Shown here piece by piece: positions 12,089 through 52,992 of a stretch of 64,000 bases of DNA; the first letter of the stretch is position 1; each line of letters begins with the position of its first letter. The notes under the pieces were generated by a model, which was given only the letters and a program-made list of their open reading frames with translations, was not told where the DNA came from and ran no database searches. The translations under genes were made by a program, and so were the position numbers. The stretch is from a virus. Its lineage: Duplodnaviria; Heunggongvirae; Uroviricota; Caudoviricetes. The stretch lies in the IMG/VR virus record IMGVR_UViG_3300027710_000010, positions 53,763 through 117,762 of that record. One strand, written 5' to 3'.

Positions 12089-12092
12089 AAAT

Positions 12093-21142: not shown

Positions 21143-21143
21143 T

Positions 21144-23711: not shown

Positions 23712-23742
23712 TAAATATTGATATTAAACAGAGAGAATTTTA

Positions 23743-33648: not shown

Positions 33649-35791
33649 TCATCGAAATATATTCTGCAATAGCATGACTGTTATTGCAACCACCTAGACT
33701 GCTCAACAATGGATAGCGGCTGTAAATGGCAGTACTTTCACTTACAAGGCTTTTCTTCAACACTTCAATTTCAAAGTTAATGCTATAACGAGTACACATG
33801 CGATGCAAACTGTAATCGGTCAAGTCAACTTTTTCTGCTGTTGCCAACTTACTTACAGTCTTAACATAAGGACTGTTTGTATTATTGATTAGCTCCACAA
33901 TTTGTTTATTATACTGGATCAGCAAGCCTCTGTCAACACTGCTGTACGCCAAATTCAGTTTTTGTGCATCAGTCATTTTGGACAATGTTGAGATGACAAG
34001 TTCTTCTACGTTAACCCAATTTTTTTGAGTTTTGATAAAATCCAAATCACCTTTACGCACACCCAAAACATCAACCCGCAGTGTTTTAAATCCGCATCGC
34101 TTCAAATCTTCAATAAATTCCTTACCACTGAAGTTATTACCTGCTTTGCTGATTACATTGTAACCACTCAAAGGCAAATAGTAGTGTGTAGAGTTAGTGT
34201 CAAAGCCGTCAGCTTTGCCTGCATCACGCCATACCACTTCCTTAGCACGGTAATAACCACCGCGGCCACGTTCTTCCAAACGCAAAATGCTAACGTTCTT
34301 ACCACTGGCAGAACTTTGAGCACGTTCTTTCTGCAAAAGCGCACTCGCCAGCATGACCTTTGGAGGCGACTTGATAAACTTTAAAAACGCATCAAACTGT
34401 GCAGGCTTTGTTTTGTCCACAGGTTCCATAACAAATACATGCGAGCTGTAAGGCATGTCCTTACTGTCTGTATTACGCCAGTGAAACTTAGCACGTTCTG
34501 CCGCACCTACTTTAGTATCGTTCTTAATAAAGTATGCACTGTCGCTAACACTAATACGCCATGAATGAATAGACGCCTTAGTAGTTTGATCGTATTCGTG
34601 ATCAGACTTCATAGTGCTACAGGTATTGCTACCGCGGGCCTTTGTAAAGCCTCGGATTACAATGTTGTACTTTTTAGACAGCGTTGATTCCAAAATCTTA
34701 AATGGGATCAAACGACCTGTGTTGTAATGGTTAGGAGTTTGATCAAAGAACACATCTTTAGTGTCTGTGATAAATTTGATGGCCGCAGTGGACATCAAAG
34801 TGTCATCACGTTGCTTGTTCAACCAAATTGCACGTTCCCATTTGTTAGTGAACGTCTTTGCCTTTTCTGCAATGTGTACTGCCAACTGAGTATTCAGTGC
34901 TTCCAACTTTGCTTTGATTGCGGCAATAGTTTGTGGAATGTATGACAAGCCTTCACGTGACGCTTGAAAGTCTACTTCACCGATAGCAAAGTGAATTTCC
35001 AAACCACAACCCAACAAGCGAGACACGTCGCCCAAATCCTTATGGTTAGCTTGCGGCACTTCAATAGGGTAAGCAATATTGCCCATAATGGCAACACTAC
35101 GGCCTCCATCGTTATGCGAATGCACGCCTGGGATGATGTCGCGTTCTTTGTAAGACACGTCACGGAATTGAAAATCGCTAACACCGCAAACAACAGGGCG
35201 CAGTTTAAAATATTTGTAGACATGACGTGCTTCGTCGTGGAACTTACTAAAGTCCCAACGGTCGTTAACACTGAACTTAACTTCCACACCAGTGGGTTCG
35301 TCTGTAGTTTCAGTCATCATTTTAGCAATGGATGGCACACCTGCATCGTTAATGAACGCAGAGTAAATACCCTTAACACCGTTTTGGATAGCGGTAACAG
35401 TAAAGTTGTCTGTGTAGCTGAATGGGCTCTTACTGCCCAAACCCAACGCACCAATAAACTCGTTGCTATTAGTCTTAGTGGATTCAAAGTAAGTGGTGTA
35501 AATTTGTGTCACTTGTTCATGCGACAAGCCAGTACCGTAGTCACGGATGGCGAACCAAGGTTCCAATTGATTGGGCAAATGCACATCAAATGGTGTTTCG
35601 TGTTTGCCTGCGGCAGCATGACTGTCCACAGCATTACAACTCAGTTCGCGAACGATAGCACGGACCTTGTTAGCATACAAGCCCGAGCTCAAAATGTTAA
35701 ATGCTTTTGCCGAATTGCGAATTCGAAATTCACCAATTTCGCCAACATTGCTCAAAACTGCTTCGTTAACTGGAGCATTGTTCAAAATCAT
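33626..35791 (-). CDS. rIIA: rIIA-like protein (GHKL-ATPase-like N-terminus)
   Basis: ILSSGLYANKVRAIVRELSCNAVDSH and GLGSKSPFSYTD blocks match T4 RIIA; 721 aa versus T4 725 aa. Confidence 0.75.
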   Translation of the reverse strand: MILNNAPVNEAVLSNVGEIGEFRIRNSAKAFNILSSGLYANKVRAIVRELSCNAVDSHAAAGKHETPFDVHLPNQLEPWFAIRDYGTGLSHEQVTQIYTTYFESTKTNSNEFIGALGLGSKSPFSYTDNFTVTAIQNGVKGIYSAFINDAGVPSIAKMMTETTDEPTGVEVKFSVNDRWDFSKFHDEARHVYKYFKLRPVVCGVSDFQFRDVSYKERDIIPGVHSHNDGGRSVAIMGNIAYPIEVPQANHKDLGDVSRLLGCGLEIHFAIGEVDFQASREGLSYIPQTIAAIKAKLEALNTQLAVHIAEKAKTFTNKWERAIWLNKQRDDTLMSTAAIKFITDTKDVFFDQTPNHYNTGRLIPFKILESTLSKKYNIVIRGFTKARGSNTCSTMKSDHEYDQTTKASIHSWRISVSDSAYFIKNDTKVGAAERAKFHWRNTDSKDMPYSSHVFVMEPVDKTKPAQFDAFLKFIKSPPKVMLASALLQKERAQSSASGKNVSILRLEERGRGGYYRAKEVVWRDAGKADGFDTNSTHYYLPLSGYNVISKAGNNFSGKEFIEDLKRCGFKTLRVDVLGVRKGDLDFIKTQKNWVNVEELVISTLSKMTDAQKLNLAYSSVDRGLLIQYNKQIVELINNTNSPYVKTVSKLATAEKVDLTDYSLHRMCTRYSINFEIEVLKKSLVSESTAIYSRYPLLSSLGGCNNSHAIAEYISMIDQKKGV

Positions 35792-35873
35792 TGGAAACCT
35801 TTCTGTGTGTGTTTGTTTACGCTATGTATGTATTATAGCGCCATCTGCATTGAAAGTCAAGTCAGAATTGTAG

Positions 35874-35898
35874 AAAATGGGGCAGTTTGCCCCATTTT
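35874..35898. terminator. bidirectional rho-independent terminator
   Basis: AAAATGGGGCA-gttt-GCCCCATTTT. Confidence 0.7.
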
Positions 35899-35916
35899 GG
35901 TAAACCAAATTATGGT

Positions 35917-37017
35917 TTAAAACGCATCGTAGTAATGGAACTGCTTTTCTTTCACTTTGGTAAGTGTTAGTGCAACCCCGTTCTTATTCATAAAGATGAA
36001 TGTTCCGTTAGCAGGATCGATCTTTTGGATTTCACCTGGATGGAATTGTGTTTCTTCCCAATTCCAATCTGCTTCCTCGTCATTGTCGTCTCGGTCAGTC
36101 CATGGAAGACCTGCATCTGAGATTTTGAATGACAAGTGAATATTGCTTTGAAGTGGGTTGCCCTTCCATTCACGAGACTCCAAGTGCTTTTGGTCAATTG
36201 GAATACCTTTGAAGGTCAATTGAGTAGTGTACTTGTTGCCGTCGTCAAACTCTGGCTTGGCGTTCAACATCTTCAATGCTTGCTCCGGAGTTTCGTTGTA
36301 GCGGTTCATTTCTTCAACCAATGCCTTCAACATGTCAAAGTTGAACTGATTGAACAAGCTGGCAATAGAGCACAATTTGGTGATGTGTTCTTTAGCCTTC
36401 AAATTGTCTTCACAGTATTCAACAATGAATGCCATGTCTAACCCCTTGTAGTCGATCATGTAGTAGATACGACCTGGGCGGTTACGCATGTGTGAGTCAA
36501 CACGCCACTTGTCATTACAAGTCAACATGAACAGTTTCTTTGAAGGAAACACGCCATCCAACAAAGTTAGAATAGCTTCTTGCTCGTCGCTTGAGTAAAC
36601 TTTCTCGAACTCGTCAAACAACACAATGCATGGCTGGTCGATAGTCTGCATGAACGCATTAAACTTATCACCGTGAAATGGAGCATTGATAACAATAGTT
36701 GGAATGCCTGTCTTAGCACCTTCGATAGATACTGCCTTAGCCAGCAATGACTTGCCAGAACCTTTTTCACCTGTAAGCATTACACCAGTAGTAGCAGGAC
36801 GATCACCAAACGTATCTAGGATACGTCGGCAGTTAGTCATGTGGTCACCGTAAGTCTTGCCTTTGATCTCAAAGTCGCTGATATGCTCCAAGAACAATTC
36901 GCCCGACATGGGATTCTCTTTGATAATGTAGTTACCAGCAGGCAGTGCTTCGTGGAGGTCCAGTGCTTCTTTAGCAGACACTCGGAACTGATTACCTGAT
37001 TTCAAAAAATATGTCAT
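35917..37017 (-). CDS. AAA-family ATPase
   Basis: Walker A GEKGSGKS, Walker B IVLFDEFEK. Confidence 0.7.
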   Translation of the reverse strand: MTYFLKSGNQFRVSAKEALDLHEALPAGNYIIKENPMSGELFLEHISDFEIKGKTYGDHMTNCRRILDTFGDRPATTGVMLTGEKGSGKSLLAKAVSIEGAKTGIPTIVINAPFHGDKFNAFMQTIDQPCIVLFDEFEKVYSSDEQEAILTLLDGVFPSKKLFMLTCNDKWRVDSHMRNRPGRIYYMIDYKGLDMAFIVEYCEDNLKAKEHITKLCSIASLFNQFNFDMLKALVEEMNRYNETPEQALKMLNAKPEFDDGNKYTTQLTFKGIPIDQKHLESREWKGNPLQSNIHLSFKISDAGLPWTDRDDNDEEADWNWEETQFHPGEIQKIDPANGTFIFMNKNGVALTLTKVKEKQFHYYDAF

Positions 37018-37018
37018 T

Positions 37019-37222
37019 TTATTTCTTAGTTTCGATTGAAGATTTAAACAGTAGGCCGCACAAGATCATTAGTCCCCATGCCTGCCACCATCCAATTGCA
37101 TTAACTCCGGTAACTGCACCAACAAGGCAATAGTTCCAAAGTAGCATTACTGGTAAACTGACTAGCAGTCCAAAACACACAATGAGGCCAACTGCTCCAA
37201 AAAGTGCAAAAAGGATTTTCAT
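37019..37222 (-). CDS. small membrane protein
   Basis: 67 aa, two hydrophobic helices. Confidence 0.45.
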   Translation of the reverse strand: MKILFALFGAVGLIVCFGLLVSLPVMLLWNYCLVGAVTGVNAIGWWQAWGLMILCGLLFKSSIETKK

Positions 37223-37293
37223 ATAATACTCTGTTTGTTTGTATGTGTTAATTATAGCAGAGGTAAACGATATTGTCTACCCCTGCGTACAAT

Positions 37294-38688
37294 TTATTTG
37301 CGAGCGTTTGCTCGAACTTGCTCAAATGTAATTTCCTTCACAAGTCGACCATCACGGTATACTTCTTCCAAAGCATCAGTCCATTCCATACCTTTGTCAG
37401 TCCAACCTTTTGGTTGGGTAACAGCAGATTGAAATTCACCTCCGCTTGTCCAAAGTGTCACACGGCCTGCTTTTGACTTCTTGCCCGAGTCAGTAATTGG
37501 ATCTTTCTGTACGTCTACCCATTTACCGTTAATTTCCGCACTCGAGCATTTCATAGCAAAACGCTGTGTATCACGATCCAGTTGTTGCAACAGAGCACCG
37601 CCCATACCAAACGCAATGTTATCAGCACTCCAACCGTATGCTTGGAAGCTACCAAGGATACAACGGATAGTGTGTTCGTTAACGCCGTCACCTTGGATAA
37701 GGCGAACGTTGTTCAATACACGGAAGCCTTTATCGTTGGTAGTGTATCCAAACTTGTCTCCTAGGATCTGTACAAGTTTTCTACAAACAATTTCAGGATC
37801 ACCAGAGTCTGGACGGATGACAACAGTAGCGCCACTATCAATAACTTTCTGGCGAAGTTCTTCTCCCCAAAGTTTTTCGGTAGCGTTGTAGATATCATAA
37901 CTATCGCTAACCACTGCAAGAATACTACCAGGCTTAGCAAATTGAGTAAGCATATTGTCATAGGCGTTTACTTCGTTGTCTCGACCCCAACTGGTAATAG
38001 TACTGTGCTCGGCTGCTGGAATACTAAAGCCAGCAATACCAGCAGAGTAATATTCGCGAGCAAAAAGAATGCCACTAATAGTATCTGTTCCCATAAAGTT
38101 AACGAGGTGACTAGCGCCGCCGATACCAGCACTCTCCATGCTAGACACACCCCGAGCGCCAAAGTCGTGCAGTTTAAAATCAATAGTACTAGGGTCACCT
38201 GTTTTCTCCAATGCGTCAAGAATGACTTGTTTAATTTTCCAGCTCTGTGTGGCTACAGTAACTGGATACCAAACTGCACGAAGCAGAGCAGTTTCCAACC
38301 AAGTAGTTAACCAGAACGCCTTAGGATCAGTATTTTCAATTGTTGCCAAAACATTGCTAACAGGGACCACTGTGCCTTCAGGAACACTCTTAATAACGAC
38401 AGGAAGGTAACCTCCGTGTGCTGATAGAATGTACTCCCATCCTTCTCGGTTGAAGGGCTCTCCGTGAGCAGTAAGGATCTCATCTGCAATATCAATGTCG
38501 GCTTGAGTAATTGGCTCAAGTAGGTATTCCTTAATAAATGCTTGGAGTCCAAACATCACAGTAGAATCGTAGCGACCGCCACGTGACTCAATGTAGGAGT
38601 AGACTCCTGTAGTACCTACTGGGTACTGTTTGAACATGCTCACTTTGTATGAGTCAGTATTCAAAATAAGATTTTTTGCGAGTTTCAT
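37294..38688 (-). CDS. nadV: nicotinamide phosphoribosyltransferase (NAMPT/NadV)
   Basis: 464 aa; N-terminal NTDSYKVSMFKQYP block and overall length characteristic of NAMPT. Confidence 0.8.
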   Translation of the reverse strand: MKLAKNLILNTDSYKVSMFKQYPVGTTGVYSYIESRGGRYDSTVMFGLQAFIKEYLLEPITQADIDIADEILTAHGEPFNREGWEYILSAHGGYLPVVIKSVPEGTVVPVSNVLATIENTDPKAFWLTTWLETALLRAVWYPVTVATQSWKIKQVILDALEKTGDPSTIDFKLHDFGARGVSSMESAGIGGASHLVNFMGTDTISGILFAREYYSAGIAGFSIPAAEHSTITSWGRDNEVNAYDNMLTQFAKPGSILAVVSDSYDIYNATEKLWGEELRQKVIDSGATVVIRPDSGDPEIVCRKLVQILGDKFGYTTNDKGFRVLNNVRLIQGDGVNEHTIRCILGSFQAYGWSADNIAFGMGGALLQQLDRDTQRFAMKCSSAEINGKWVDVQKDPITDSGKKSKAGRVTLWTSGGEFQSAVTQPKGWTDKGMEWTDALEEVYRDGRLVKEITFEQVRANARK

Positions 38689-38961
38689 TGTAAAGTTCCT
38701 TTACGTATTATGCCAGGCGTCTATCGCTTGGACTTGTTGTTAGTATAACATAGACCCCATGTCTATGTCAACTAATTTGATTAATAACATTCCTTGTAAA
38801 TTGTATAACGAGGTTTTGGATACAATTCAGAAAAGTTTTGTTCTTTAATGTACTTGTTCATATCACCAGCATTGAAAAACATCTTGTTAAACACGGTTAT
38901 GTGCTTACCGTCAATTATTTCGGTTACTGTAAGATAATTGCTTTTTGCGACTCCGGCCATT

Positions 38962-39981
38962 TTATGCTCCTAAAAAGTGTTGGATAATTTCGTAATGATC
39001 TTCAAAACATTCTTCGCTCTTGACCTCAGCAATGGGAACCCAACGTGCTTTTTCTGCATCGTCGGAGCCTTTTACTTTGGGCAATTCGCCATCTGGCAAT
39101 TGAATAAAGAATGCGTGTGTAATAATGCGACCACGTGGACTACGGTCAATCGCATCAAATACCTTACTGCGTTGAATACTGCCGCGAAGTACTGGAGCTG
39201 GTACTTTGATTAGCGTTTCTTCACGCAATTCGCGGATCGCGGCATCTTCAACTGACTTGTCTGTGTTGGCGTTTACATATCCGCCTGGCAATGCCCACAA
39301 GCCCTTACCTGGTTCAGCACGGCGTTTGATAAGCAAGATGTGTCCGCTTTGGATCACAACTGCATCAGCTGTACTGAATATTGGAGGATAAGGCAAACTT
39401 GCGTATTGCTTCTTGTAGTTGATAACAAACTCGCGTTCGCGGATGATCTGTTCGTACTCTGCTGTTTCTTTGAACTTCATTAGGAAGTCAAAGGTAGATT
39501 CTGGAACAACGCCTTTGATAAAGCTCATATTGACATCACGCTTGAAGAACAAGTCTCGAATGTTAACGGCACTTAAAAACTCAATAAGCTCTACGTTTTC
39601 AAATCCCCATTGTGGGAACATATCTAAGTAGAATGAACTGTCATCTTTCTTGTGACCGATGATGCCAACCTTGTCGCCGGGCTTAGTGTGTTTGGCAACT
39701 AGTGCCTGTACACGAACTGCCCATGCTTGGTCGTTGTAAATTGTATCTGGATTTTCTTCAACGCTGATTAGCATTGAAAGTCCGCCTGCCGCATACTTAA
39801 TCATCTGTGCTCGTTCAGCACTTGTAAACGGGTTTTTGTAAGTGCGGGGTTGTGCGGCACTACCTGTAATAATCACCAGCTGTTCACAAAGTGCTGTGGC
39901 ACGTTTGATAATCTCTAAGTGAGCATTATGTATGGGTTGGAAGCGTCCAATAAGGACTAGGGTATCGTATTTTCTAGACAT
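38962..39981 (-). CDS. nadM: bifunctional NMN adenylyltransferase / Nudix ADP-ribose pyrophosphatase (NadM-Nudix, NatV-like)
   Basis: N-terminal LVLIGRFQPIHNAH (HxGH nucleotidyltransferase) plus C-terminal Nudix box AAIRELREETLI. Confidence 0.8.
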   Translation of the reverse strand: MSRKYDTLVLIGRFQPIHNAHLEIIKRATALCEQLVIITGSAAQPRTYKNPFTSAERAQMIKYAAGGLSMLISVEENPDTIYNDQAWAVRVQALVAKHTKPGDKVGIIGHKKDDSSFYLDMFPQWGFENVELIEFLSAVNIRDLFFKRDVNMSFIKGVVPESTFDFLMKFKETAEYEQIIREREFVINYKKQYASLPYPPIFSTADAVVIQSGHILLIKRRAEPGKGLWALPGGYVNANTDKSVEDAAIRELREETLIKVPAPVLRGSIQRSKVFDAIDRSPRGRIITHAFFIQLPDGELPKVKGSDDAEKARWVPIAEVKSEECFEDHYEIIQHFLGA

Positions 39982-40071
39982 TGAAAAATCCTTTCAATAA
40001 TGTCAACTTTGCGTCTATCGCATCGCTTTGTTTTATTTATGCTTTAATTATAACATCAAAGCATTCTTGGG

Positions 40072-40515
40072 TCAAGCTAATTTGGCTCTAATTTCCATAT
40101 AAAAAGCATGGTACTTTGCCATTCTAGCGATGTCCTTTTCAGTAACACCCTTGAGTCTTCGGATGTCTGTGTTATGACGCAGATCAGCCATTTTGACTCG
40201 CATAGCATCTTCGCTAGCAAAAACGCCTTCCTTATATTCTTCATAAGTTTGGCCAGGTTGCTTGGTAAGAGCACGGATGCCAGTGATAACTCTTTCGGTC
40301 ATACCAGCTTCACGTAAGTCTTTGTAAGTGACATTGGTGTCTTCAATAACATCATGTCCCAGTGCCATACACATCAATTCTTCGTCATCACTCTTTAGGT
40401 AGTGCATAACTTTGAGTGGGTGCAGGATGTAAGGATTGCCGCCTTTGTCAAATTGACCGTGATGGGCAGTGGTTGCAATGTGCAACATTTGTGCTAACAT
40501 TTCGCCTTTTCTCAT
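40072..40515 (-). CDS. HD-domain (p)ppGpp hydrolase-like protein (small alarmone hydrolase)
   Basis: HHGQFDKGGNPYILHPLKV matches the SpoT/RelA hydrolase HD motif; single-domain 147 aa. Confidence 0.65.
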   Translation of the reverse strand: MRKGEMLAQMLHIATTAHHGQFDKGGNPYILHPLKVMHYLKSDDEELMCMALGHDVIEDTNVTYKDLREAGMTERVITGIRALTKQPGQTYEEYKEGVFASEDAMRVKMADLRHNTDIRRLKGVTEKDIARMAKYHAFYMEIRAKLA

Positions 40516-40577
40516 CTTTTACTCCTATTACTTACTGTACTTACAGTATAACGCAAGTCCGCCAATCTGTCAACCAT

Positions 40578-40605
40578 AAAGAAACCCGCCGAAGCGGGTT
40601 TAATG
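40578..40605 (-). terminator. rho-independent terminator after the OM protein gene
   Basis: AAACCCGC-cgaa-GCGGGTTT plus T-run on minus strand. Confidence 0.7.
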
Positions 40606-40616
40606 TTTAATACTAA

Positions 40617-41339
40617 TTAGTTAAACGATTTGGTTACTGACACTACAAAAGTATCTTTGTAAAGACGTTGACCATTTATTGTATTAGCAGATTGGAATGT
40701 GCTTCCTTGATTGCTGTTTGTGTAATACTTACCAGCAATATTCCAACCTTGCAAGTCATATGCAACACCGACATTGTAGTCTGTATAGTTCAATGATGAG
40801 CTGTTTTCAACTAGTGTGCGGCCAACATGACCAACTGCCGACAATTTGCCAACTAGTGGAATTGTTGCGTCTGCCTGTAGGTAGTTAGAACCTTTACTGT
40901 TAGCAGTACCAAAGTAGTTGCTTAATGATTGACTAGCTTTAACACTAACCAACTCTTTGTAACCTACACCAACGTACAATTCGTTCGTGTCAAAGTTATT
41001 ACCACCTGTGGTAGTTGTAGCACGTGGATAGAAATAATTCATAGTACCAACGTCGATTGTAACGCCTTTATAAACTTCTTTCTTAAAGCCAGCGTATACA
41101 TCTGACTCAACGCCTGCGCCATTTGTATACATTTGACTTGAAACAGAACTGTTCCAGTTACCGACGTATAGCCCACTTGAGTGTGCGTAATCAATACCGC
41201 CTTGTACTGCTGGAGCATTTTGGGTTTGACTTACGCCACGGAAACGGTAGTCGGAGGTCAAGCCCAAATTGCCTGTAACCTGTGCTTGGGCAACAGAGAT
41301 ACCTGCTACCATCATCAATGCTAAAAATAGCTTTTTCAT
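40617..41339 (-). CDS. outer-membrane beta-barrel protein (TIGR02001-like)
   Basis: Signal peptide ending AQA; TSDYRFRGVSQT N-terminal block; alternating amphipathic strands; C-terminal F. Confidence 0.55.
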   Translation of the reverse strand: MKKLFLALMMVAGISVAQAQVTGNLGLTSDYRFRGVSQTQNAPAVQGGIDYAHSSGLYVGNWNSSVSSQMYTNGAGVESDVYAGFKKEVYKGVTIDVGTMNYFYPRATTTTGGNNFDTNELYVGVGYKELVSVKASQSLSNYFGTANSKGSNYLQADATIPLVGKLSAVGHVGRTLVENSSSLNYTDYNVGVAYDLQGWNIAGKYYTNSNQGSTFQSANTINGQRLYKDTFVVSVTKSFN

Positions 41340-41424
41340 ATTTGTATTTCCTTTTAATAAAGTGACTGTACGTCACTTGTACATTATATAGTATTGTTGA
41401 TTCTAGAGCAAGATTTTTATAGTC

Positions 41425-41450
41425 AAAAGAAACCCGCCGAAGCGGGTCCT
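41425..41450 (-). terminator. rho-independent terminator at 3' end of tmRNA coding piece
   Basis: GGACCCGC-ttcg-GCGGGTTTCTTTT on minus strand. Confidence 0.7.
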
Positions 41451-41850
41451 ACTATTTTGGATGACACGGTATAGTTACCGCGCAAGGGCTGTTTTTTAGG
41501 CAGCTAATTCGAAACGCTCAGCGTTTGCGGCGCGAGCCACAGAAGCTGGAACTTCGAAAAACTTGAAAGTAGATGTTTTTGCATTTACTAGATTTTGCTT
41601 GATTTAGAGTCATCGCCTACTCAGTTGCCGTCTTCAATATCTCACCCTGTCGAAACCATGGCAGGCCCATTAGTAAGTATGCTAACCGGTATACAAAGCC
41701 TTCTGTACACCACGGAGGAATAAATTCCTGCTTATCCGTTAAACTGTCGCTAACATACTTGCTGGTGGACCTGGCGGGAGTCGAACCCGCGTCCAAGATG
41801 CCTTTTCTCTAAAGGAATTACAACTATACCGCTATTATACGGCATAATAT
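41430..41850 (-). ncRNA. ssrA: tmRNA (ssrA), apparently circularly permuted two-piece form; tag reading frame 41531..41496 encodes (A)ANAERFELAA-stop
   Basis: Minus strand contains a tRNA-like acceptor/T-arm ending ...GCGGG-TTCGACT-CCCGC-CAGGTCC-A-CCA at 41763-41790. About 110 nt downstream lies a 5' acceptor strand GGGCCUGCCAUGGUUUCGACAGGG resembling the E. coli tmRNA 5' end, then GCC GCA AAC GCT GAG CGT TTC GAA TTA GCT GCC TAA, then a terminator. Confidence 0.7.
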
Positions 41851-41914
41851 TTATCCTGTCAAACTTTTTGGTTGTTAAAGCAATAAATACATACATAACA
41901 TTGGGAGCGAATCA

Positions 41915-42196
41915 ATGGGTGATATTTTTAAAATTATTGGCGACTTAGGTATGCCAGTAGCGGCAGCACTAGCAGGTGGGTACTTCGTGTACCTTACTAT
42001 CAAATTGTTATTACAAGGAGTACTTGGTTCAATCAAAGGTATGGCCGGTATTATCACAGCACTAGATAACCGTGTCAAAACCATGAACCACGACGTTGTA
42101 CGTATTGATACTATCGTATCGAATGCATTAGGGTTGCGCCCAGATGTAGAGCGAATTGCTCGTGCTGATGGTAAGAATGATGCAAGAAGGGATTAA
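41915..42196 (+). CDS. small membrane protein
   Basis: 93 aa, hydrophobic N-terminal half; first gene of a plus-strand block. Confidence 0.45.
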   Translation: MGDIFKIIGDLGMPVAAALAGGYFVYLTIKLLLQGVLGSIKGMAGIITALDNRVKTMNHDVVRIDTIVSNALGLRPDVERIARADGKNDARRD

Positions 42197-42198
42197 TT

Positions 42199-42408
42199 AT
42201 GTTGTACATTGATTACTCTTGGGACCTTAGTCCAAGTGGTATTAGATTAGATGAAGAACTTAACATAGACAAATTAGGCTGGAAGGCCGGGGATCTGTTC
42301 GAAGTTACAAACACCAACGGTCGAGCGATGTTAAGAAAAGTAGATCCTGTAGTAGCATTTGCTAAGGGATATAGAGTAAACTTTGGAGAAGAAAATGGAC
42401 GTAGTTGA
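42199..42408 (+). CDS. hypothetical small protein
   Basis: 69 aa ORF. Confidence 0.4.
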   Translation: MLYIDYSWDLSPSGIRLDEELNIDKLGWKAGDLFEVTNTNGRAMLRKVDPVVAFAKGYRVNFGEENGRS

Positions 42409-42718
42409 GTTAGTCAATAAGTATGGCTTTCCAATTGTCATGGCAGTTGGAATGGGCTTCATTATCAAGTACGTTTGGGAATGGGCTACAAAGGAAGTTA
42501 AACCAGTTATCTCAGAAGCCAATACAGTGCTGATTGCGCTAATTGATCGTATACGTATGTTAGACAATGACTTGATTCGATTGAATCAAAAAGTAAATAC
42601 AGTACTGCACTTGCGAGGCAAGACTATTGAATATGAACGTGTTGAAGCTGAGAAAGAAATTAATGAAGTTAAACAAAAGAAAGAAGATGATAAAACTGCT
42701 AGTGCAGGAGAGTCATAA
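42383..42718 (+). CDS. hypothetical membrane/coiled-coil protein
   Basis: 111 aa, one TM segment. Confidence 0.45.
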   Translation: MEKKMDVVELVNKYGFPIVMAVGMGFIIKYVWEWATKEVKPVISEANTVLIALIDRIRMLDNDLIRLNQKVNTVLHLRGKTIEYERVEAEKEINEVKQKKEDDKTASAGES

Positions 42719-42838
42719 AGAACACCTACCTTAGGACCGTACTTGTACGGAGGTGTGGCCGGCTGCTGGCTACAAATGTTGGGAGTCGTGCCCCGGAAGA
42801 CATTTGTAAAGTGAGCATTTTTTACGACTAAATATTCA

Positions 42839-43552
42839 ATGGATAAAATCATAGCAACGTTAGTGATGACGCACATCACAATAGTATGTGTAACATTATA
42901 CTTACACAGAAGTCAAGCACACAGGGGCATTGAGTTTCATCCCGTAATAAGTCACTTCATGAGACTTTGGTTATGGATGACTACAGGGATGACTACCAAG
43001 CAATGGGTAGCTATACATCGTAAGCATCATCAAAATACAGATGTAGAAGGTGATCCGCATAGTCCGCATGTGTTCGGAATTTGGCAACTAGTTTTTGGTG
43101 GTGTTAAATTTTATAATCTAGCAGGTAAAGATGCACACATGGTTATGAAATACGGCATGGGCACACCTAAAGACTGGATTGAACGCAAACTTTATACACC
43201 CCACCATCGCCTTGGCATTCTCTTAATGCTAGTCATAGACTTATTGTTCTTTGGGCCTTGGGGATTTTTAGTGTGGGGTGTTCAAATGATATGGATACCA
43301 TTCTGGGCCGCAGGATTTATTAACGGCATCGGACACTGGTGGGGTTATCGCAATGGCGAAACTAAGGACCGCAGTCACAACGTCAGTCCTTGGGGAATTT
43401 TAATTGGTGGAGAAGAACTACATAACAATCATCACCTAGATCCTGCTAACCCTAAACTAAGTCGTCGCTGGTTTGAGTTTGATATTGGCTGGATGTGGTT
43501 TAAGATTTTTGAATTGCTAAAGTTAGCTAAACTTAGAAACTCTTCGCAATAA
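42839..43552 (+). CDS. membrane fatty-acid desaturase family protein
   Basis: Histidine boxes HRKHH and HNNHH with hydrophobic spans. Confidence 0.7.
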   Translation: MDKIIATLVMTHITIVCVTLYLHRSQAHRGIEFHPVISHFMRLWLWMTTGMTTKQWVAIHRKHHQNTDVEGDPHSPHVFGIWQLVFGGVKFYNLAGKDAHMVMKYGMGTPKDWIERKLYTPHHRLGILLMLVIDLLFFGPWGFLVWGVQMIWIPFWAAGFINGIGHWWGYRNGETKDRSHNVSPWGILIGGEELHNNHHLDPANPKLSRRWFEFDIGWMWFKIFELLKLAKLRNSSQ

Positions 43553-44282
43553 ACTCTGCTTCGGGGATACGGGTATGTGTATTTTTACTACCTAACACAA
43601 CAACAATACGTCTTCCTATTTCAGTATCTAGCATCATAACAATACAACCTCCACTGGCTCTTATGTAGCCAGTTTTGCTGACTATGAAGTTATGACGTTT
43701 GCCAATAATAGGATTTGTGTTATTAAAAATAAACCACTGTTTCTTTAGTTTAATTTTAACTTGGCTTGTTTTACTAGTTTCAACAATTTCTGGATACTTT
43801 GCTGACTCTAAAACAATTTTAATTAATTCTTCAGCTGTGCTGACATTCATTACACTGAGTCCAGTTGGGTCTATATACTTTGTTTTTGTTAGCCCAAGTT
43901 GTTTGGCTTTTGCGTTCATAGCACGTATACATTCAACAGTTCCGCCGGGGTAATGCTCGCAAAGCATTAGAGAGGCGGTGTTATCGCTTTTAACCATTGC
44001 CAACTGTATTAGTTCTTTGCGTGTGTATGGTTTGATAAAATCATTTAAATCTTGATTTGCATCTAATACAACCATAACAGTCATCAATTTAGTAATACTG
44101 GCAATGCTACGCTGTTGCTCAGTATTTTCGCCTTGTATTATTTTGCCGTCGGCACTTGCCACCAACCACGATGTTGCTGTAATTGGCACAGGTTTGGCAT
44201 TGGAGGCGTTTGCTTGCCCAACATATAAAAGGGCAAAAAATGCCAATAGATATAAGATTCTATACATTTGTCTAGTATACAC
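43533..44282 (-). CDS. D-alanyl-D-alanine carboxypeptidase/endopeptidase (peptidase S11)
   Basis: Signal peptide; SITKLMT (SxxK), SDN and C-terminal KTG-like block. Confidence 0.7.
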   Translation of the reverse strand: MYTRQMYRILYLLAFFALLYVGQANASNAKPVPITATSWLVASADGKIIQGENTEQQRSIASITKLMTVMVVLDANQDLNDFIKPYTRKELIQLAMVKSDNTASLMLCEHYPGGTVECIRAMNAKAKQLGLTKTKYIDPTGLSVMNVSTAEELIKIVLESAKYPEIVETSKTSQVKIKLKKQWFIFNNTNPIIGKRHNFIVSKTGYIRASGGCIVMMLDTEIGRRIVVVLGSKNTHTRIPEAEFIAKSF

Positions 44283-44303: not shown

Positions 44304-46358
44304 TTATTTTTCGTGTGCAACAAATTCACCGTTCCAGTTGTCGCCCAAATCTTGGTGTTTCATAAACTCGCAACGTTCAATCCAAATCTTATAGTACTTG
44401 TCCATTTGTCCGCCAAAGTTACCCTTTAGCTTTTTACACATAGCGGCAGCTTCGTCAAACTTTTTAGCTTTGTATAAGTCATGCATTACTTCGTGTGCTA
44501 TCTTATCTCTAGTGTAATCAACACCACGAGTACGTAACACAGTATAAATTAAGTCTGCTACTGTCTTGCCTTTTGGTTGCAAGTTGTCTAGCAACAAGTA
44601 GAAGAAATCATCTTTAGTTCTGTTGTATGTTTCTGCCCCAACAATGGCCAATACACCGTACGCTTTACAACGTGCTTCTAAACGTGCCGCAGTACTAACC
44701 ATGTCACCTAGAATGTCATAGCTGTGACGTTCTGTTGAACCCATCTCACCGATAAAGCCAATACCTGTGTTACAACCCCAACCCATTGCGGCTGGCGGTA
44801 AACCTTGTGCTTCCATTAGCTTGGTATATTCGTCTACAGCATCCAACATTTCTAATCCTACCTTAACGATAGTACGAGCATGATTAGGATCTTCAATAGG
44901 AGCACCGTGTATGTGCATTGACGCATCACCTACATACTTGATAACCATGCCCTTGTTATCTAACATTGGCTGACTGATAGCATCCATGTATCCGTTCATG
45001 TACTTGCCTAGCCCAGCGACGTCATCTCCATAGTGTTCGCCAATTGGTGTAAAGCCACGTAGGTCACTAAACATAACACTTACGTCTTTTCGCACACCAC
45101 GCTTGATTAAGTCTGGATCTTTTTGTAACAGCTCTACTACTTCTTTTGAACAGTATCCAGCAAACTGTTTCTTAATAGCTTGCTTCTGTAAGAACTCGCT
45201 TACAAACTTAACGCCATAAGTATGCAGAGCGACAAGAATAAGACCAAACGAGATTGCTGTCGCGTCTGATAAGATGAGCCAGCTATTGAAAGCGTACATA
45301 GTACCAGGAATGATGGCACCAACAATAACCACAGTAGCACAAATGCCAACATAAGTCCACCTCGATAAGAAAATTAATAAAATGCCAAATGCTAGTAATG
45401 CTAAAACTTCAACTCCCTCGGCATAGTCGGGACGTTGTATAACTACTCCATTAACCATTGTGCCTATTGCGGCTGCTTGTACATCCTGTGGCCATACAGC
45501 GCCCTTGCTTGTTGGCACTGGATTGGCAATACCTGCGGCTGTTGGTCCTACGATAACAATAGCGCCCCCAAAATCTTTAGGTAGCTCCATTAGACTTACC
45601 TGTTTATTTTCTTGGCTCCAGTCAATCCATACACGACCCAACGCATCAGTAGTAATTGGACCAAATTTAGGAATTCGCATTTTTTCAACACCACCAGCGA
45701 ATAGCTTAATCTGTGTTGTTGAATCTCCTGCTACTACACGAAGTGTCTCCATAGCAAGGCTTGGATAGATATCTCCGTTAACTGTAATGACTAATGGTAG
45801 TCGGCGATTAACACCGTCAATTTCTTCTTTAGTATGAGTTGTGCCAACTCCTATGGCATTATTTTCCAACATTGGCACATTGGCAATTAGACCACCGTAC
45901 GGAGTAATGCTGTCTACAAATTCTGAATTGATAACTGCTGTTCCAGGCTTGCGTGGACTGTTCTTAGTTTTACCCTCGTAAGGTGTTGATGAAAGAACTA
46001 CAGGATATTGTTTTAGGGCATTTGCGAGAACAGCATCGCCACCAGTACGATCAGACTCAGCCATGATAACATTGAGCACAACAAGCCCAGCGCCACGATC
46101 GTACAAATCTTTAATAATCTTAGCATACTCTGCCCTCGGTAATGGCCATTGGCCATACTTATCTAAACTAGCTTCGTCTATGTTAACTGTATAGATATTA
46201 TTTTCTGTAGGTGCTTTGCTAGTAATTAGTGTATCAAAATAACGTAGCCTTACACTTTCAACAAATGTAGGATCTGCAACACGTATGCTCAATACTAACG
46301 CTAGTGTTAGTAGTGCAGTCCAAGGGCTTAACAATGTTTTCTTAAATTCTATTTTCAT
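44304..46358 (-). CDS. CHASE2 sensor domain-containing adenylate/guanylate cyclase
   Basis: N-terminal TM plus periplasmic CHASE2-like domain, 3 TM helices, class III cyclase core (FSDLRGFT). Confidence 0.7.
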   Translation of the reverse strand: MKIEFKKTLLSPWTALLTLALVLSIRVADPTFVESVRLRYFDTLITSKAPTENNIYTVNIDEASLDKYGQWPLPRAEYAKIIKDLYDRGAGLVVLNVIMAESDRTGGDAVLANALKQYPVVLSSTPYEGKTKNSPRKPGTAVINSEFVDSITPYGGLIANVPMLENNAIGVGTTHTKEEIDGVNRRLPLVITVNGDIYPSLAMETLRVVAGDSTTQIKLFAGGVEKMRIPKFGPITTDALGRVWIDWSQENKQVSLMELPKDFGGAIVIVGPTAAGIANPVPTSKGAVWPQDVQAAAIGTMVNGVVIQRPDYAEGVEVLALLAFGILLIFLSRWTYVGICATVVIVGAIIPGTMYAFNSWLILSDATAISFGLILVALHTYGVKFVSEFLQKQAIKKQFAGYCSKEVVELLQKDPDLIKRGVRKDVSVMFSDLRGFTPIGEHYGDDVAGLGKYMNGYMDAISQPMLDNKGMVIKYVGDASMHIHGAPIEDPNHARTIVKVGLEMLDAVDEYTKLMEAQGLPPAAMGWGCNTGIGFIGEMGSTERHSYDILGDMVSTAARLEARCKAYGVLAIVGAETYNRTKDDFFYLLLDNLQPKGKTVADLIYTVLRTRGVDYTRDKIAHEVMHDLYKAKKFDEAAAMCKKLKGNFGGQMDKYYKIWIERCEFMKHQDLGDNWNGEFVAHEK

Positions 46359-46822
46359 GATGGTCTTCTTACCTCTACATCGTGCAGGGAACCGTCTTCT
46401 TGTGTCCAATTTGGCAACAGCTTACTAAAAATTCGACCATATACTCCTGATCTACCACTAGACCCTTGTATATCATATTCTATCACTCGAATTTTGTCGT
46501 TGTATTTTACTATAAAATCTTTTATTATATCAGTGATTGCTGATATAACTTGTGCCGCATTACCAGTTCCGAGCATGTTAACTTTTCCGTTGCCGGTGAA
46601 ACTGATCTCCCAATAACCGCTGTAGTCGACTTCTTCGTTTTCGGCGTCGTCATCATAACCTATTTCATCGCGGTCCGCATCTACGTGATCGTATTCTGAA
46701 TTGCTGGCCCTGAAGTCGTACTCCACACCACCCACAAAAAATTCAGCGTTGGCGTAGCGTTCTCCGCGTGAGGTCCATTTCCACGGAACTGAAGTCGCCG
46801 CCATTATTTCGTCGATTCTCAT
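46355..46822 (-). CDS. hypothetical acidic protein
   Basis: 155 aa. Confidence 0.45.
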   Translation of the reverse strand: MRIDEIMAATSVPWKWTSRGERYANAEFFVGGVEYDFRASNSEYDHVDADRDEIGYDDDAENEEVDYSGYWEISFTGNGKVNMLGTGNAAQVISAITDIIKDFIVKYNDKIRVIEYDIQGSSGRSGVYGRIFSKLLPNWTQEDGSLHDVEVRRPS

Positions 46823-50010: not shown

Positions 50011-51108
50011 TTAATTTTGAGTGATAGTAATCATACTAGTCGCTCCTTTGTTTATGTTTTGTATAATAGTCTGACCATCTTGAATAATTGTTAGTGTAGC
50101 ACTCCTATTCGTGTCAAATGTCACTGTTGCATTGTGACTCGCTGCCTTATACAATGTTACCTGACTAGCATCATCATTATAATAATACATCAACCCTAGG
50201 GGCTTATTGTAACTGTATCCGGGTAGTATTGGGTCGTCTAATTCATTTGATAGAAATGATCTATTTTGTTTGTCCAAATCACTTTCTGTGTAAAATTCTA
50301 ATAGATCAGCGTTTAAATCATTTCGATCTAATGCTTTATTATCATCAAGTTTGTTTTCTTCTAGTCCATTAAATTTCAATAGATCAATATTCAGTTCGTT
50401 AAAATCTAACCCAGCACGATCTCGTTTAGTGTTGACACTATCGTCATTTACTTCTGGCGGTTTGCTAACAATTAACAAGTTATTAATGTTGGCTTGATCT
50501 ATTTTAACCACTGCAGGCTCGCTTGGTCGGGTATACGCACTATTAACTAATGTTGCTTGGTACGGCACGTCCAATAACACTATTCCGGCTAATGTGCTAA
50601 CTTCAATAGCGCCAGTGACACATGCGCCTTTGTCATCACAACTAGGCAATAGCATGACAAGACTTCGACCTAACTCGTCTACAGTCATACTAAAATCAGT
50701 GCCCCGTACTGCGATAGTTGCTGTTGGAGTTTTTATTGCGACTTGTTGAGGATTGTTTTTAGCAATCTGACCACTAGCATAACGAGCAGTACCCAGCGCC
50801 ATATTAATAGCTAACTTGCCTGTACCTTTTTTTGGGTCATAGACAAAATCATCAATAATCAACTTACTCTGTTCTGTAATTTTAACAGTAGTTGCATCAT
50901 CAAAAGTAATTGTTGCCTTAGCCTTTGCTGTGCTAATAGCATCGTTCATTTCTACGCCCGTGTTGATGCTCGAGGATAAACTTTTCTTATCTCGTACGAT
51001 CTCTGTTGGGCCCGACTGCTCAGTAACCTTGCCCACACCTGCAAACCCGTTAATCGGTTTGAGTAACAGAAATATTATTATTAGAGCCGTTACTGTTGAT
51101 AGATGCAT
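50011..51108 (-). CDS. FecR-domain protein
   Basis: N-terminal TM; AIKTPTATIAVRGTDFSMTV block typical of the FecR domain. Confidence 0.5.
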   Translation of the reverse strand: MHLSTVTALIIIFLLLKPINGFAGVGKVTEQSGPTEIVRDKKSLSSSINTGVEMNDAISTAKAKATITFDDATTVKITEQSKLIIDDFVYDPKKGTGKLAINMALGTARYASGQIAKNNPQQVAIKTPTATIAVRGTDFSMTVDELGRSLVMLLPSCDDKGACVTGAIEVSTLAGIVLLDVPYQATLVNSAYTRPSEPAVVKIDQANINNLLIVSKPPEVNDDSVNTKRDRAGLDFNELNIDLLKFNGLEENKLDDNKALDRNDLNADLLEFYTESDLDKQNRSFLSNELDDPILPGYSYNKPLGLMYYYNDDASQVTLYKAASHNATVTFDTNRSATLTIIQDGQTIIQNINKGATSMITITQN

Positions 51109-51703
51109 TCTTAGCCATGCCGCCAGTTTGTAATAATGTAACCAAATTTGGTGTACCTGGAGTTCCACCACCTGCTACTGTGATATCAGCTGTATGCATA
51201 CCTGCACCGCTTGTAGTATGCGATACGTTATTATTACTACCTGCAATATTGATAACACTAGACAACACATTACCGGCTAACATCTGCGTGACATTATTAT
51301 TGTTACCAGTTACATTATTAGTAATAGTATCAGCAATACATGTTTCGCATTTGATAAGTTGGTTGTTTCCAGACCCGTCAGCTGACACGTTAACAATAGT
51401 TCCTGTACCTTTAGTCATGCTGTCCAGCACTAAACTAAGAGTGTTGCTTGCACCAATTTGAGTTACCGTAACGACGTTGAAGTCGCCTTTAATCATTGCC
51501 GGAGTTGTTGAACTTGTTTTTGCAACGTCTCCGTTGACTAGGTTTCCTGCGCCCGTTTGTGTTATACTTACAGTAGCATTATCGCCCACCTGTTCTACGT
51601 ACACATCATTGGCCCATGCTCCCGATGACAACATTCCAGTTGCCATTAGTATTGCGAATACTTTTCTCGACAATCCGCCACCGCCTTTTATTCTTTTAAT
51701 CAT
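51050..51703 (-). CDS. curlin-repeat-like secreted protein
   Basis: Signal peptide then imperfect repeats (ATVSITQTGAGN, NVVTVTQIGASN, NISVTQTD) resembling CsgA/CsgB repeats. Confidence 0.5.
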   Translation of the reverse strand: MIKRIKGGGGLSRKVFAILMATGMLSSGAWANDVYVEQVGDNATVSITQTGAGNLVNGDVAKTSSTTPAMIKGDFNVVTVTQIGASNTLSLVLDSMTKGTGTIVNVSADGSGNNQLIKCETCIADTITNNVTGNNNNVTQMLAGNVLSSVINIAGSNNNVSHTTSGAGMHTADITVAGGGTPGTPNLVTLLQTGGMAKNASINSNGSNNNISVTQTD

Positions 51704-51743
51704 TTTACTTCGCTCCTTGATACATCGCTAGATTGTATCGTTG

Positions 51744-52562
51744 TTAGTTTACTTCTTGATCTATTAAAGGTGCCACCTTTTTAAATCTCCAAATACCCTT
51801 CTTCTCGCCTTGTATTATCATATCATATACTGCCTGTTCGATAGCTACTCGAACAGCATATGTTGTTGGTTCATTTAATGCCATACCATTTTCTAATTCT
51901 AATGCTTTAGTTCCCGCATCCACAAACCTTAATACACCAACGTTGTGCTGTGTGCTGTAAATAGTTTTACTCACAGCGTTCGACAGTAGGATCTCTCCAC
52001 TATTCACGCTTATCAGTCTCAAACTAATCACAACTTCATCAACACGGTACTGCTGACTTCCACCGATGCCTAAAAATCTAGCACCGTTACCTCCACTGCG
52101 AATATTGCTGTCATAGCCAATAATCCCACCTTCAATCATTATACCTGCCACTGTCATTGGTTTAAGTTGCTTCGCATCCTTACCTTCGTATACTTCACGT
52201 TGGTTACGGATCAACTGTCGTTCTTTAATAAGATTATCTAATCCTACACGCTCTACTACTTTAAACCAATTCTTACTGTCCTGCAAGCTCTTGATTAAGA
52301 ATACTTCAGACCCCTGTGTTACTGCTTTACTAAACAATGCTAACTTGTCGTTTGGCTTCATTTGTCCAGTTTTATCTTGGAATCCGTAAACTGCAATAGT
52401 CATCGGAGGCCCATCCAAATCTGGTATCACCTCAGTTAAGCTCTGTCGCGGTTTTAACACTACAGGCCCCTCTTTTTTCGCCATGTCCATATGTACTGCG
52501 GCGCATCCGGAGAGCATTATTGTAAAAAATATTGCTAGTATAAGTCTCATATTAGAATGCAA
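51744..52562 (-). CDS. csgG: CsgG-family secretion channel lipoprotein
   Basis: Lipobox LSGC; TIAVYGFQDKTGQ, IMIEGGIIGYDSN, GGNGARFLGIGGS blocks align with E. coli CsgG. Confidence 0.8.
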   Translation of the reverse strand: MHSNMRLILAIFFTIMLSGCAAVHMDMAKKEGPVVLKPRQSLTEVIPDLDGPPMTIAVYGFQDKTGQMKPNDKLALFSKAVTQGSEVFLIKSLQDSKNWFKVVERVGLDNLIKERQLIRNQREVYEGKDAKQLKPMTVAGIMIEGGIIGYDSNIRSGGNGARFLGIGGSQQYRVDEVVISLRLISVNSGEILLSNAVSKTIYSTQHNVGVLRFVDAGTKALELENGMALNEPTTYAVRVAIEQAVYDMIIQGEKKGIWRFKKVAPLIDQEVN

Positions 52563-52992
52563 AGCTCGCTATAGGTACAATTATTTCAGTGGTGCCAGTG
52601 GGTGCAACGATAACCAACTTTACTTGCCCTAATGTGGTATCTTTAGACCATGTTATTGTTGTACCTTGAAACTCCATAGTTCCAGTATTACCGCTAGTTT
52701 CGGCAAACAACTGATCTGCTAATTGCTTAGATAATTGTGCGTAGATACGTGCTTCTACGTTGACTAGAAATTTAGCTAAGTTGGTACTCTTGGCGGCAGT
52801 TTCTGCTTTGGCAATTGCCGCCGCCTCTTCTGATTTTATCTCTTTCTTCTTGTTTTCTTCCAACTGATGGATCGACAAGACGTGAGCCGAGAACCCATTG
52901 CCTGGTATAAAGGCTGGGCTTTGGAAGTTATGTAATAGTTCAGCTGCCGACACACACGTAGGCAACAGTACTAGTAATAATAGTTTTTTCAT
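52552..52992 (-). CDS. csgF: CsgF-like curli assembly protein
   Basis: Signal peptide then NFQSPAFIPGNGFSA resembling the CsgF FxNPxFGGNP N-terminus; adjacent to csgG. Confidence 0.55.
   Translation of the reverse strand: MKKLLLLVLLPTCVSAAELLHNFQSPAFIPGNGFSAHVLSIHQLEENKKKEIKSEEAAAIAKAETAAKSTNLAKFLVNVEARIYAQLSKQLADQLFAETSGNTGTMEFQGTTITWSKDTTLGQVKLVIVAPTGTTEIIVPIASFAF

Follow-up and report, generated by a model that had tools for sequence, protein, structure and literature searches.

A probable NARP2-type NAD+ salvage module with a shared two-hairpin leader in an uncultured large T4-like phage

The stretch analysed here, in the following called the window, consists of 64,000 nucleotides (positions 53,763 to 117,762) of the IMG/VR record IMGVR_UViG_3300027710_000010, whose source is an uncultured large T4-like phage. 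Its minus strand carries two genes of nicotinamide adenine dinucleotide (NAD+) salvage, one encoding a nicotinamide phosphoribosyltransferase (NadV) of 464 amino acids (aa) and one encoding a bifunctional protein (NadM) of 339 aa, and a first-pass annotation had proposed such a pair at 37294-39981. Indeed, both open reading frames (ORFs) start with ATG and have exactly the coordinates already annotated; NadM precedes NadV by 273 bp in this phage genome. The span also contains a third ORF of 59 aa, which had not been mentioned. In the order of transcription, the locus comprises the following features:

40047..40075, minus strand: NadM promoter, sigma-70-type and near-consensus, TTGACC-17-TATAAT (consensus match)
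40002..40029, minus strand: NadM leader hairpin with the invariant G-AUAGA-C apical loop (31.5 bits with the covariance model R1, of which it is a training sequence)
39979..39999, minus strand: NadM Shine-Dalgarno hairpin UAUUGAAA-GGAUU-UUUCAAUG, with GGA in the loop and AUG in the 3' arm
38962..39981, minus strand: NadM-type bifunctional nicotinamide mononucleotide (NMN) adenylyltransferase (residues ~1-180) / Nudix ADP-ribose pyrophosphatase (residues ~200-339), predicted from Pfam, NCBIfam and PDB matches and from motifs
38781..38960, minus strand: 59-aa ORF between NadM and NadV, a variable insert with no family match
38742..38771, minus strand: NadV promoter, sigma-70-type and near-consensus, TTGACA-18-TATACT with a TG extended -10 (consensus match)
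38708..38735, minus strand: NadV leader hairpin with the invariant G-AUAGA-C apical loop (33.9 bits with model R1, likewise a training sequence)
38690..38704, minus strand: NadV Shine-Dalgarno hairpin GUAAAG-GAA-CUUUAC, one base 5' of the AUG
37294..38688, minus strand: nicotinamide phosphoribosyltransferase of the NadV/Nampt type, 464 aa, predicted from Pfam, NCBIfam and PDB matches and from catalytic residues

The family assignment of both proteins is supported by several collections, with scores far beyond chance. In Pfam, the 464-aa protein matches NAPRTase (1.9e-62) and NAMPT_N (5.1e-27), and the 339-aa protein matches CTP_transf_like (4.5e-14) and NUDIX (7.7e-22), all above the gathering scores; the three domains that the first-pass annotation had predicted (NAPRTase, CTP_transf_like and NUDIX) were hence all found. 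In NCBIfam, the transferase reaches 645 bits with PRK09198 (cut-off 405), and NadM reaches 365.4 bits with PRK05379.1-5, 'bifunctional NMN adenylyltransferase/Nudix' (curated equivalog cut-off 354), and 393.4 bits with PRK05379.1-2, slightly below the cut-off of 397. The PHROGs collection places the two proteins in phrog_448, nicotinamide phosphoribosyl transferase (4.9e-163), and phrog_395 (3.5e-77), respectively. A PADLOC scan gave no defence-system identity for the pair, its sole match being a weak generic Nudix hit.

Domain matches alone cannot separate Nampt from Namat because both enzymes share Pfam family PF04095 and the catalytic core (10.1101/2024.02.11.579819; PMC12774641). Compared with solved structures in the PDB, the 464-aa protein scores 599 bits with Xanthomonas Nampt (7yqo) and about 438 bits with human NAMPT, but only 238-268 bits with the phage Namat structures 9w5x, 9w5w and 9ke8. 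The Namat of Bacillus phage Eyuki, which is adjoined by the PRPS-like Adps gp75, shows the opposite ranking. All 16 conserved NAMPT residues that were checked are identical in the phage protein (human Y18, H191, F193, R196, D219, H247, R311, D313, G353, D354, G383, G384, R392, K400, K415 and K423), including the autophosphorylated histidine H247 and the aspartate D219, which determines specificity for nicotinamide. The human sequence used for this check is the one we take to be that of NAMPT, its numbering being consistent with the PDB ranges of the structure search. The selectivity helix of Namat contains the aromatic residues F392 and Y396 (PMC12774641), which are replaced by Ala and Gln in the 464-aa protein, with the local sequence GMGGALLQQLDRD, as in Xanthomonas and human Nampt; for this comparison, 9w5x was numbered from a printed alignment, in which A362, S391, F392, Y396, R399 and D400 match the published positions (PMC12774641). 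At the equivalent of the Namat selectivity loop, the phage protein can be aligned without gaps to the short form of the Xanthomonas Nampt. As judged from these comparisons, the transferase is of the true Nampt type and not a Namat.

NadM can be aligned end to end with the Synechocystis NadM (PDB 2qjo; 288 bits, 44.6% identity) and scores 227 bits with the NadM of Francisella (2qjt). The Nudix core RELREET (REx2EE) is intact and invariant in all 120 close relatives, and the N-terminal part of the Nudix box has a two-residue insertion relative to the Synechocystis protein. The adenylyltransferase domain carries unusual ATP motifs. The first, GRFQPIHNAH, reads HNAH in place of HxGH (signature (H/T)xGH), so that both histidines are kept and Gly is changed to Ala; HxAH is found in 119 of the 120 close relatives, which are 85-100% identical to this NadM, and HNAH is also present in Synechococcus phage B23. 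For orientation, human NMNAT1 has TNMH at the first ATP motif. The second motif reads LSAVNIR in place of ISSTxxR, with Ser and Arg kept and Thr changed to Val. All 120 close relatives have LSAV[ND]IR, whereas the threonine is kept in B23, in the phages PG216 and RsoM2USA, and in Synechocystis and Francisella. Both variants are thus fixed in the clade.

Both genes are under purifying selection. In a comparison with a relative on a 343-kb contig (L009), which served as the reference for substitution rates, the ratio of nonsynonymous to synonymous rates (dN/dS) of NadV is 0.14; for NadM, the proportions of differences at nonsynonymous and synonymous sites are 0.109 and 0.774, the synonymous sites being saturated. 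The two genes also tend to stay together. In 65 of 81 related metagenomic phage loci, a set chosen via NadM or the NadV leader, a NadV gene is found no more than 3 kb behind NadM in the same orientation, with gaps of 42 to 2815 bp that are filled by varying small ORFs. The 59-aa ORF of the window is one of these fillers: it has no match in Pfam, NCBIfam, PHROG or PADLOC, was rejected as a member of the module since a homologue occurs in only one of the 81 loci, and probably lies outside the NAD+ pathway. A published survey reported NadV for 22-33% of medium and jumbo phages and found it in all phages with NadM (PMC9503650). In our search of the phage collection, 485 records contained a NadM homologue and 2020 a Nampt or Namat homologue. 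The statement of the first-pass annotation that such pairs are known from KVP40-like vibriophages is therefore correct but too narrow, as the 485 records come from phages of many hosts.

The pair can be compared with the known NAD+ reconstitution pathways. Among the ORFs scanned in the window, which covers 64 kb of a genome of about 300 kb, no member of the Adps/PRPS/Pribosyltran, NadR, PnuC, Macro or NADAR families was detected, and no PRPS-like gene was seen within ten genes of NadV or elsewhere among these ORFs. NARP1, which combines an adjacent Adps with a transferase with an aromatic selectivity helix, and NARP3, which combines PnuC with a NadR-like kinase/adenylyltransferase, were hence not recognized in the window; NadM reaches only 26.9 bits with the NadR NMNAT model (cut-off 341). 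What was found, a Nampt-clade transferase and an Nmnat homologue in one phage with no Adps among the ORFs of the 64 kb, corresponds to NARP2.

Each of the two genes has its own promoter. Between 35.5 and 42.5 kb, seven sites match the sigma-70 consensus in at least 11 of 12 positions, all of them on the coding strand, compared to 0.21 expected from shuffled sequences; the whole window contains 24 such sites, all on the minus strand. The analogy to the early promoters of T4 suggests early transcription by the host RNA polymerase. An inverted repeat, ATAGAC..GTCTAT, lies in the spacer of the NadV promoter, and its arms differ in relatives yet remain complementary (e.g., GACATTAA..TTAATGT and GACACAG..CTGTGT, as seen by eye).

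Downstream of each promoter, the leader can fold into two hairpins. The first (hairpin 1, to which the covariance model R1 corresponds) presents the G-AUAGA-C loop and, in the case of NadV, begins at about the predicted 5' end of the transcript. The exact 11-mer GCGATAGACGC occurs at only two sites in the 64 kb, in the NadV leader hairpin and at 40011-40021 in the NadM leader. In relatives, the flanks of hairpin 1 vary but stay complementary, while G-AUAGA-C is invariant. Pair 12-20 of an alignment of 74 sequences is formed by CG in 32, AU in 27, GC in 10, UA in two, UG in two and GU in one, and is never unpaired; pair 11-21 is formed in 71 of the 74 sequences by five pair types. The covariation score of 0.457 was reached by none of 500 shuffles (0.138) and compares with at most 0.162 in slid controls. 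RNAalifold independently recovers the core helix of hairpin 1. The Shine-Dalgarno hairpins are out of register between the two leader classes, and for this reason the recovery from the mixed alignment of NadM and NadV leaders is limited to the 3-bp core of hairpin 1. The core pairs include 11 G-U wobbles and no A-C, which points to an RNA on the sense strand. The second, AU-rich hairpin was assessed sequence by sequence and was found in all 74 aligned leaders, with at least 30 different complementary arm pairs. The Shine-Dalgarno GGA is either part of its loop (completely so in 43 of the 74) or adjacent to it, and the hairpin ends at the AUG or one base before it. A pseudoknot in which the AUAGA loop pairs with the start region (in NadM, GUCUA following AU) was considered and dropped because the start region of NadV has no counterpart and the invariant loop gives no covariation to test.

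The element is closely tied to the two NAD genes. With filters off, model R1 matches only the two leaders in the window, the next best site scoring 12.1 bits, and of 151 matches in the relatives, 150 are at the start of a NadM or NadV unit and in the orientation of the genes. Of the related leaders, 54 of 81 belonging to NadM and 61 of 67 belonging to NadV carry the element; it was also found in NadM-NadV spacers of 42-51 nt that contain no promoter. Where NadM lacks a direct element, the element precedes a small inserted ORF of a 108-aa or 118-aa family upstream of NadM, as seen in 21 of the other NadM leaders tested. These ORFs, found in L022, L024, L047, L085 and other loci about 350-600 nt upstream of NadM, either start with MSKATTFTIKK... 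(118 aa) or contain an HTDGCGWHYE motif (108 aa), and they keep the leader and the ATGTC start, which suggests gene insertion by recombination at the leader.

In a scan of IMG/VR, a pattern of the NadV-type leader gave 106 matches, 100 of which directly precede NadV; one further match is cut by a contig end after MKLAK, and five are unstructured chance matches. Sequences of the clade amounting to 1.51 Mb contain 316 GATAGAC sites flanked by a stem, of which 262 are located ahead of NadM or NadV and a further 39 ahead of inserted ORFs that head a NadM unit. The cleanest evidence for specificity comes from the 64-kb window and the flanks of the related loci. Furthermore, model R1 finds the NadV leader of the cultured Synechococcus phage B23, which is outside the training set, with 23.9 bits. 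No such element was detected in either leader of Ralstonia phage RsoM2USA (NadM and NadV) or in the NadM leader of PG216. A search against Rfam with E-values of up to 10 (38660-40110) was negative, as was one with E-values of up to 1 for the leaders (35500-43000), and a full-text literature search for GAUAGAC or GATAGAC found nothing; the hairpin is apparently undescribed.

The shared G-AUAGA-C hairpin, together with the Shine-Dalgarno hairpin, would most likely allow both genes to be controlled jointly at the post-transcriptional level. A protein or, with lower probability, a metabolite of the pathway (e.g., NAD+, NMN, ADP-ribose or nicotinamide) might bind to it. We tentatively propose that the two-hairpin leader might be a cis-regulatory RNA that is hitherto undescribed and dedicated to the NAD+ salvage genes of phages, present in this clade and in B23; we consider this possible rather than probable. 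Its main competitor, a plausible explanation which we nevertheless hold at less than even likelihood, is that the hairpin does not act as a regulator and is a 5' stabilizing stem-loop or a recombination-prone cassette that is inherited with the genes. The position of the NadV hairpin at the transcript start would fit a stabilizer, and the occurrence of leader and ATGTC ahead of different inserted ORFs in relatives is what a mobile cassette would show; T4-type phages are known to shuffle genes via promoter/stem-loop cassettes, the PeSLs (PMC4122927). However, a plain stabilizer would not need an invariant seven-base loop on a freely changing stem, the element is retained in the short spacers that lack a promoter, and it is absent at the other 22 strong promoters of the window.

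The comparison with PeSLs of T4-type phages (PMC2839356, PMC4122927) is instructive in both directions. Near-consensus sigma-70 promoters with stem-loops in a plastic accessory region are common to both, as are terminator-then-promoter units, here upstream of the HD-domain gene described below and of rIIA, and different ORFs behind the same leader in relatives. In contrast, the PeSL stem-loop is located upstream of the promoter (PMC4122927), while the AUAGA hairpin lies downstream of it in the transcribed leader, has an invariant loop and is confined to the NAD genes rather than spread over the region.

With regard to the function of the proteins, the tested precedent is the Nampt and Nmnat pair of phage KVP40, which was named NARP2 and overcomes the NAD+-depleting defences Thoeris, DSR and SIR2-HerA (10.1101/2024.02.11.579819); the aRES defence is also overcome by NARP2 enzymes. 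The demonstrated chemistry leads from phosphoribosyl pyrophosphate (PRPP) and nicotinamide to NMN and then to NAD+ (10.1101/2024.02.11.579819). By analogy, the 464-aa Nampt would condense nicotinamide with PRPP to NMN, and the N-terminal domain of NadM would adenylylate NMN with ATP to NAD+. As a possible side route, ADP-ribose is probably hydrolysed by the Nudix domain, which would yield AMP and ribose-5-phosphate, and from the latter the host Prs could then make PRPP. With a strong sigma-70-type early promoter for each gene, the pathway should be active as soon as infection begins, and the module would keep NAD+ up, thereby blunting defences that deplete it through TIR, SIR2, SEFIR or RES effectors. 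The first-pass annotation had already described the pair as an NAD+ salvage module of the NARP2 type and linked it to NAD+-depleting defences, and the domains, the Nampt type of the transferase and the KVP40 study agree with it. It had further stated that the pair converts both nicotinamide and ADP-ribose to NAD+; the nicotinamide route corresponds to the chemistry shown for NARP2, whereas the route via the Nudix domain is plausible and would need the host Prs.

Taken as a whole, the locus is very probably best explained as a two-enzyme phage NAD+ salvage module of the NARP2 type with its own early promoters and a shared two-hairpin leader; for this pair, the enzyme activities, the early timing, the counter-defence role and any role of the leader are inferred. 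Several points weigh against this interpretation. The similarity to the tested Nampt of the KVP40 NARP2 is indirect. The adenylyltransferase domain of NadM departs from both ATP-binding signatures, which qualifies its predicted activity, and the change from Thr to Val is without a checkable precedent. The scan for Adps is limited to 64 kb of the ~300-kb genome. Concerning the leader, the related loci were chosen via NadM or the leader itself, so that they provide a limited background for its specificity.

It is also conceivable, but on balance unlikely, that the pair acts as a general metabolic booster of the kind formed by auxiliary metabolic genes, supplying NAD+ for DNA replication and nucleotide metabolism of a large phage, with any counter-defence effect being incidental. 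The KVP40 NARP2 raises NAD+ even in cells free of defence systems (10.1101/2024.02.11.579819), NadV and NadM are enriched in medium and jumbo phages (PMC9503650), and the window is rich in host-like metabolic and stress genes (heme oxygenase, bilin reductase, HSP20, ClpS, AhpC and fatty-acid desaturase). On the other hand, the same enzymes overcome Thoeris, DSR, SIR2-HerA and aRES. A booster is moreover compatible with a counter-defence role, and sequence cannot separate the two.

A further explanation concerns NadM alone: the replacement of HxGH by HNAH and of ISSTxxR by LSAVNIR could have crippled the adenylyltransferase, leaving mainly a Nudix hydrolase that clears ADP-ribose or related nucleotides, while the host NadD or NadR completes the synthesis of NAD+. 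This appears quite improbable, since the two variants are fixed in the 120 relatives, purifying selection on the full-length protein is strong, both histidines and the arginine are kept, and B23 combines HNAH with LSSTDIR. Finally, a Namat of the NARP1 type, joining ADP-ribose pyrophosphate to nicotinamide with an Adps encoded elsewhere, would be compatible with the shared PF04095 core and with a scan of 64 kb, but this reading was rejected on the structure scores and on Ala and Gln at the selectivity-helix positions and is extremely unlikely, as the selectivity loop aligns without gaps to Xanthomonas Nampt, NadM is the adjoining partner, a PRPS-like gene is absent from the window ORFs, and no phage carrying NARP1 and NARP2 together has been found (10.1101/2024.02.11.579819).

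Placed beside known systems, the proposed NARP2-type module resembles that of KVP40 (10.1101/2024.02.11.579819) in both enzyme families, in the fusion of Nudix to the adenylyltransferase, in the Nampt type of the transferase, in having no Adps nearby and in belonging to a large T4-like phage. It differs in the ATP motifs HNAH and LSAVNIR and in the dedicated leader hairpin on both genes, which was not detected in the PG216 NadM leader. Neither nadV nor natV was found in KVP40 positions 1-22000 and 195000-244834, and the NadM of the KVP40-like phage PG216 was used instead; it is distant (36.6% identity over 325 aa) and has no NadV closer than 3 kb in PG216, whereas here the two are neighbours in the order NadM then NadV.

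Among cultured phages, the closest NadM and one of the closest NadV proteins are those of the Synechococcus phages B23 and B3 (gp46 and gp49; 54% and 56% identity). B23 shares the gene order with small ORFs in between, HNAH, and the AUAGA-loop and Shine-Dalgarno hairpins on both genes, but it keeps the Thr in LSSTDIR, and its NadM hairpin CCAGAAA-AUAGA-UUUCUGG is closed by A-U and not by G-C. Bacterial NadV-NadM systems (Synechocystis slr0787 NadM, Francisella NadM and Xanthomonas Nampt) provide full-length solved homologues with the same Nudix core and Nampt catalytic residues; the system described here differs from them in its phage setting, its early-type promoters and the changes of G to A and T to V in the first and second ATP motif, respectively. 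NARP1, consisting of Adps and Namat, has the transferase fold and the catalytic histidine in common, but here the window contains no Adps, the transferase has no aromatic selectivity helix, and the partner is NadM.

The assignment of the genome to the large T4-like phages agrees with rIIA and rIIB immediately downstream of the pair and with a T4-type Gp23 and a prohead protease near the pair on a related contig; the tRNA genes and the transfer-messenger RNA of the window, described below, also confirm that the DNA is from a phage. An identical NadM is encoded on a metagenomic contig of 299,582 bp, and an identical NadV on contigs of 59 kb and 38.6 kb (recorded size class 0.2-1 Mb). Megablast of 36000-41500 against deposited phages gave no close DNA relative, and a search for proteins identical to two other ORFs of the window had no result. 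In the protein search with NadM, 7731 matches were obtained at E <= 1e-20; the lineage is abundant in metagenomes, as homologues 85-100% identical fill the best 120 clusters.

Several neighbours of the pair are of interest in their own right. An AAA ATPase (35917-37017, minus strand; phrog_2376, 8.9e-90) lies downstream of NadV; 33 of the 81 relatives also have it no more than 3 kb from NadM. The gene that immediately precedes NadM (40072-40515, minus strand) has a terminator-plus-promoter unit of its own and encodes an HD-domain protein of 147 aa. Among solved structures, this protein is closest to the (p)ppApp hydrolase 7smg (90.7 bits), and further matches are to RelA/SpoT hydrolase domains and phrog_990. 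It is probably a small alarmone hydrolase of the phage. Its dN/dS of 0.03 indicates very strong purifying selection. It was considered as a third member of the module and rejected, as it adjoins NadM in only five of the 81 relatives. In L009, the block of HD gene, NadM and NadV is flanked by a DUF2828/DUF7788 protein and a dual-specificity-phosphatase-like ORF (5816-11225); in the window, these two lie at 583-2795 (minus strand), about 35 kb from the pair, which points to a rearrangement of the accessory region.

Further upstream, a putative porin of the TorF/Gcw_chp family (40617-41339, minus strand) is followed by a transfer-messenger RNA gene (41405-41855, minus strand; 122.8 bits with the permuted model and 104 bits with the Betaproteobacteria model), a fatty-acid desaturase (42839-43552, plus strand), a D-Ala-D-Ala carboxypeptidase-like peptidase S11 (43533-44282, minus strand) and a CHASE2 sensor fused to a nucleotide cyclase (44304-46409, minus strand), which has a weak match to the Pycsar cyclase PycC (1.7e-11). 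Curli secretion genes are found at 50011-52992 on the minus strand (CsgG, 7.8e-54; CsgF, 1.3e-11; an ORF with weak curlin repeats and a FecR-domain ORF). The consecutive genes for a ferredoxin-dependent bilin reductase, heme oxygenase, ClpS and HSP20 (54943-56944, minus strand) form a set typical of cyanophage accessory genes; this set, together with B23 as the closest cultured source of NadM and the leader motif, hints at a cyanobacterial or similar freshwater host.

At the other end of the window, 37 tRNA genes form an array (4981-12178, minus strand), just upstream of which five tandem sigma-70 promoters are spaced about 100 bp apart (12866-13264, minus strand; four with 12 of 12 consensus positions and one with 11). 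A low-GC island (14056-24477; GC 0.33-0.36) contains three radical-SAM ORFs (one with an HMPTM zinc ribbon), a methyltransferase, a QueC/PP-loop ATPase-like ORF, an Asp/Arg hydroxylase-like ORF and two 2-oxoglutarate-Fe(II) oxygenases, and looks like a small-molecule or nucleoside modification cluster.

The gene pair itself is an ordinary example of the known NARP2 kind and adds one phage lineage to a pathway already present in about 1% of sequenced phages; the real novelty is confined to the leader RNA and the fixed motif variants. The fixation of HNAH and LSAVNIR constitutes a natural test of how far nucleotidyltransferase signatures can change. The leader, a small and strongly covarying RNA element, marks exactly the two NARP2 genes. 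NARP2 was reported to be metabolically wasteful and toxic on expression (10.1101/2024.02.11.579819). If the proposed role of the leader is true, this costly and somewhat toxic pathway would be translated in a coordinated or conditional way. Because the leader is also present in the cultured phage B23, the question of how NARP2 is controlled is directly testable.

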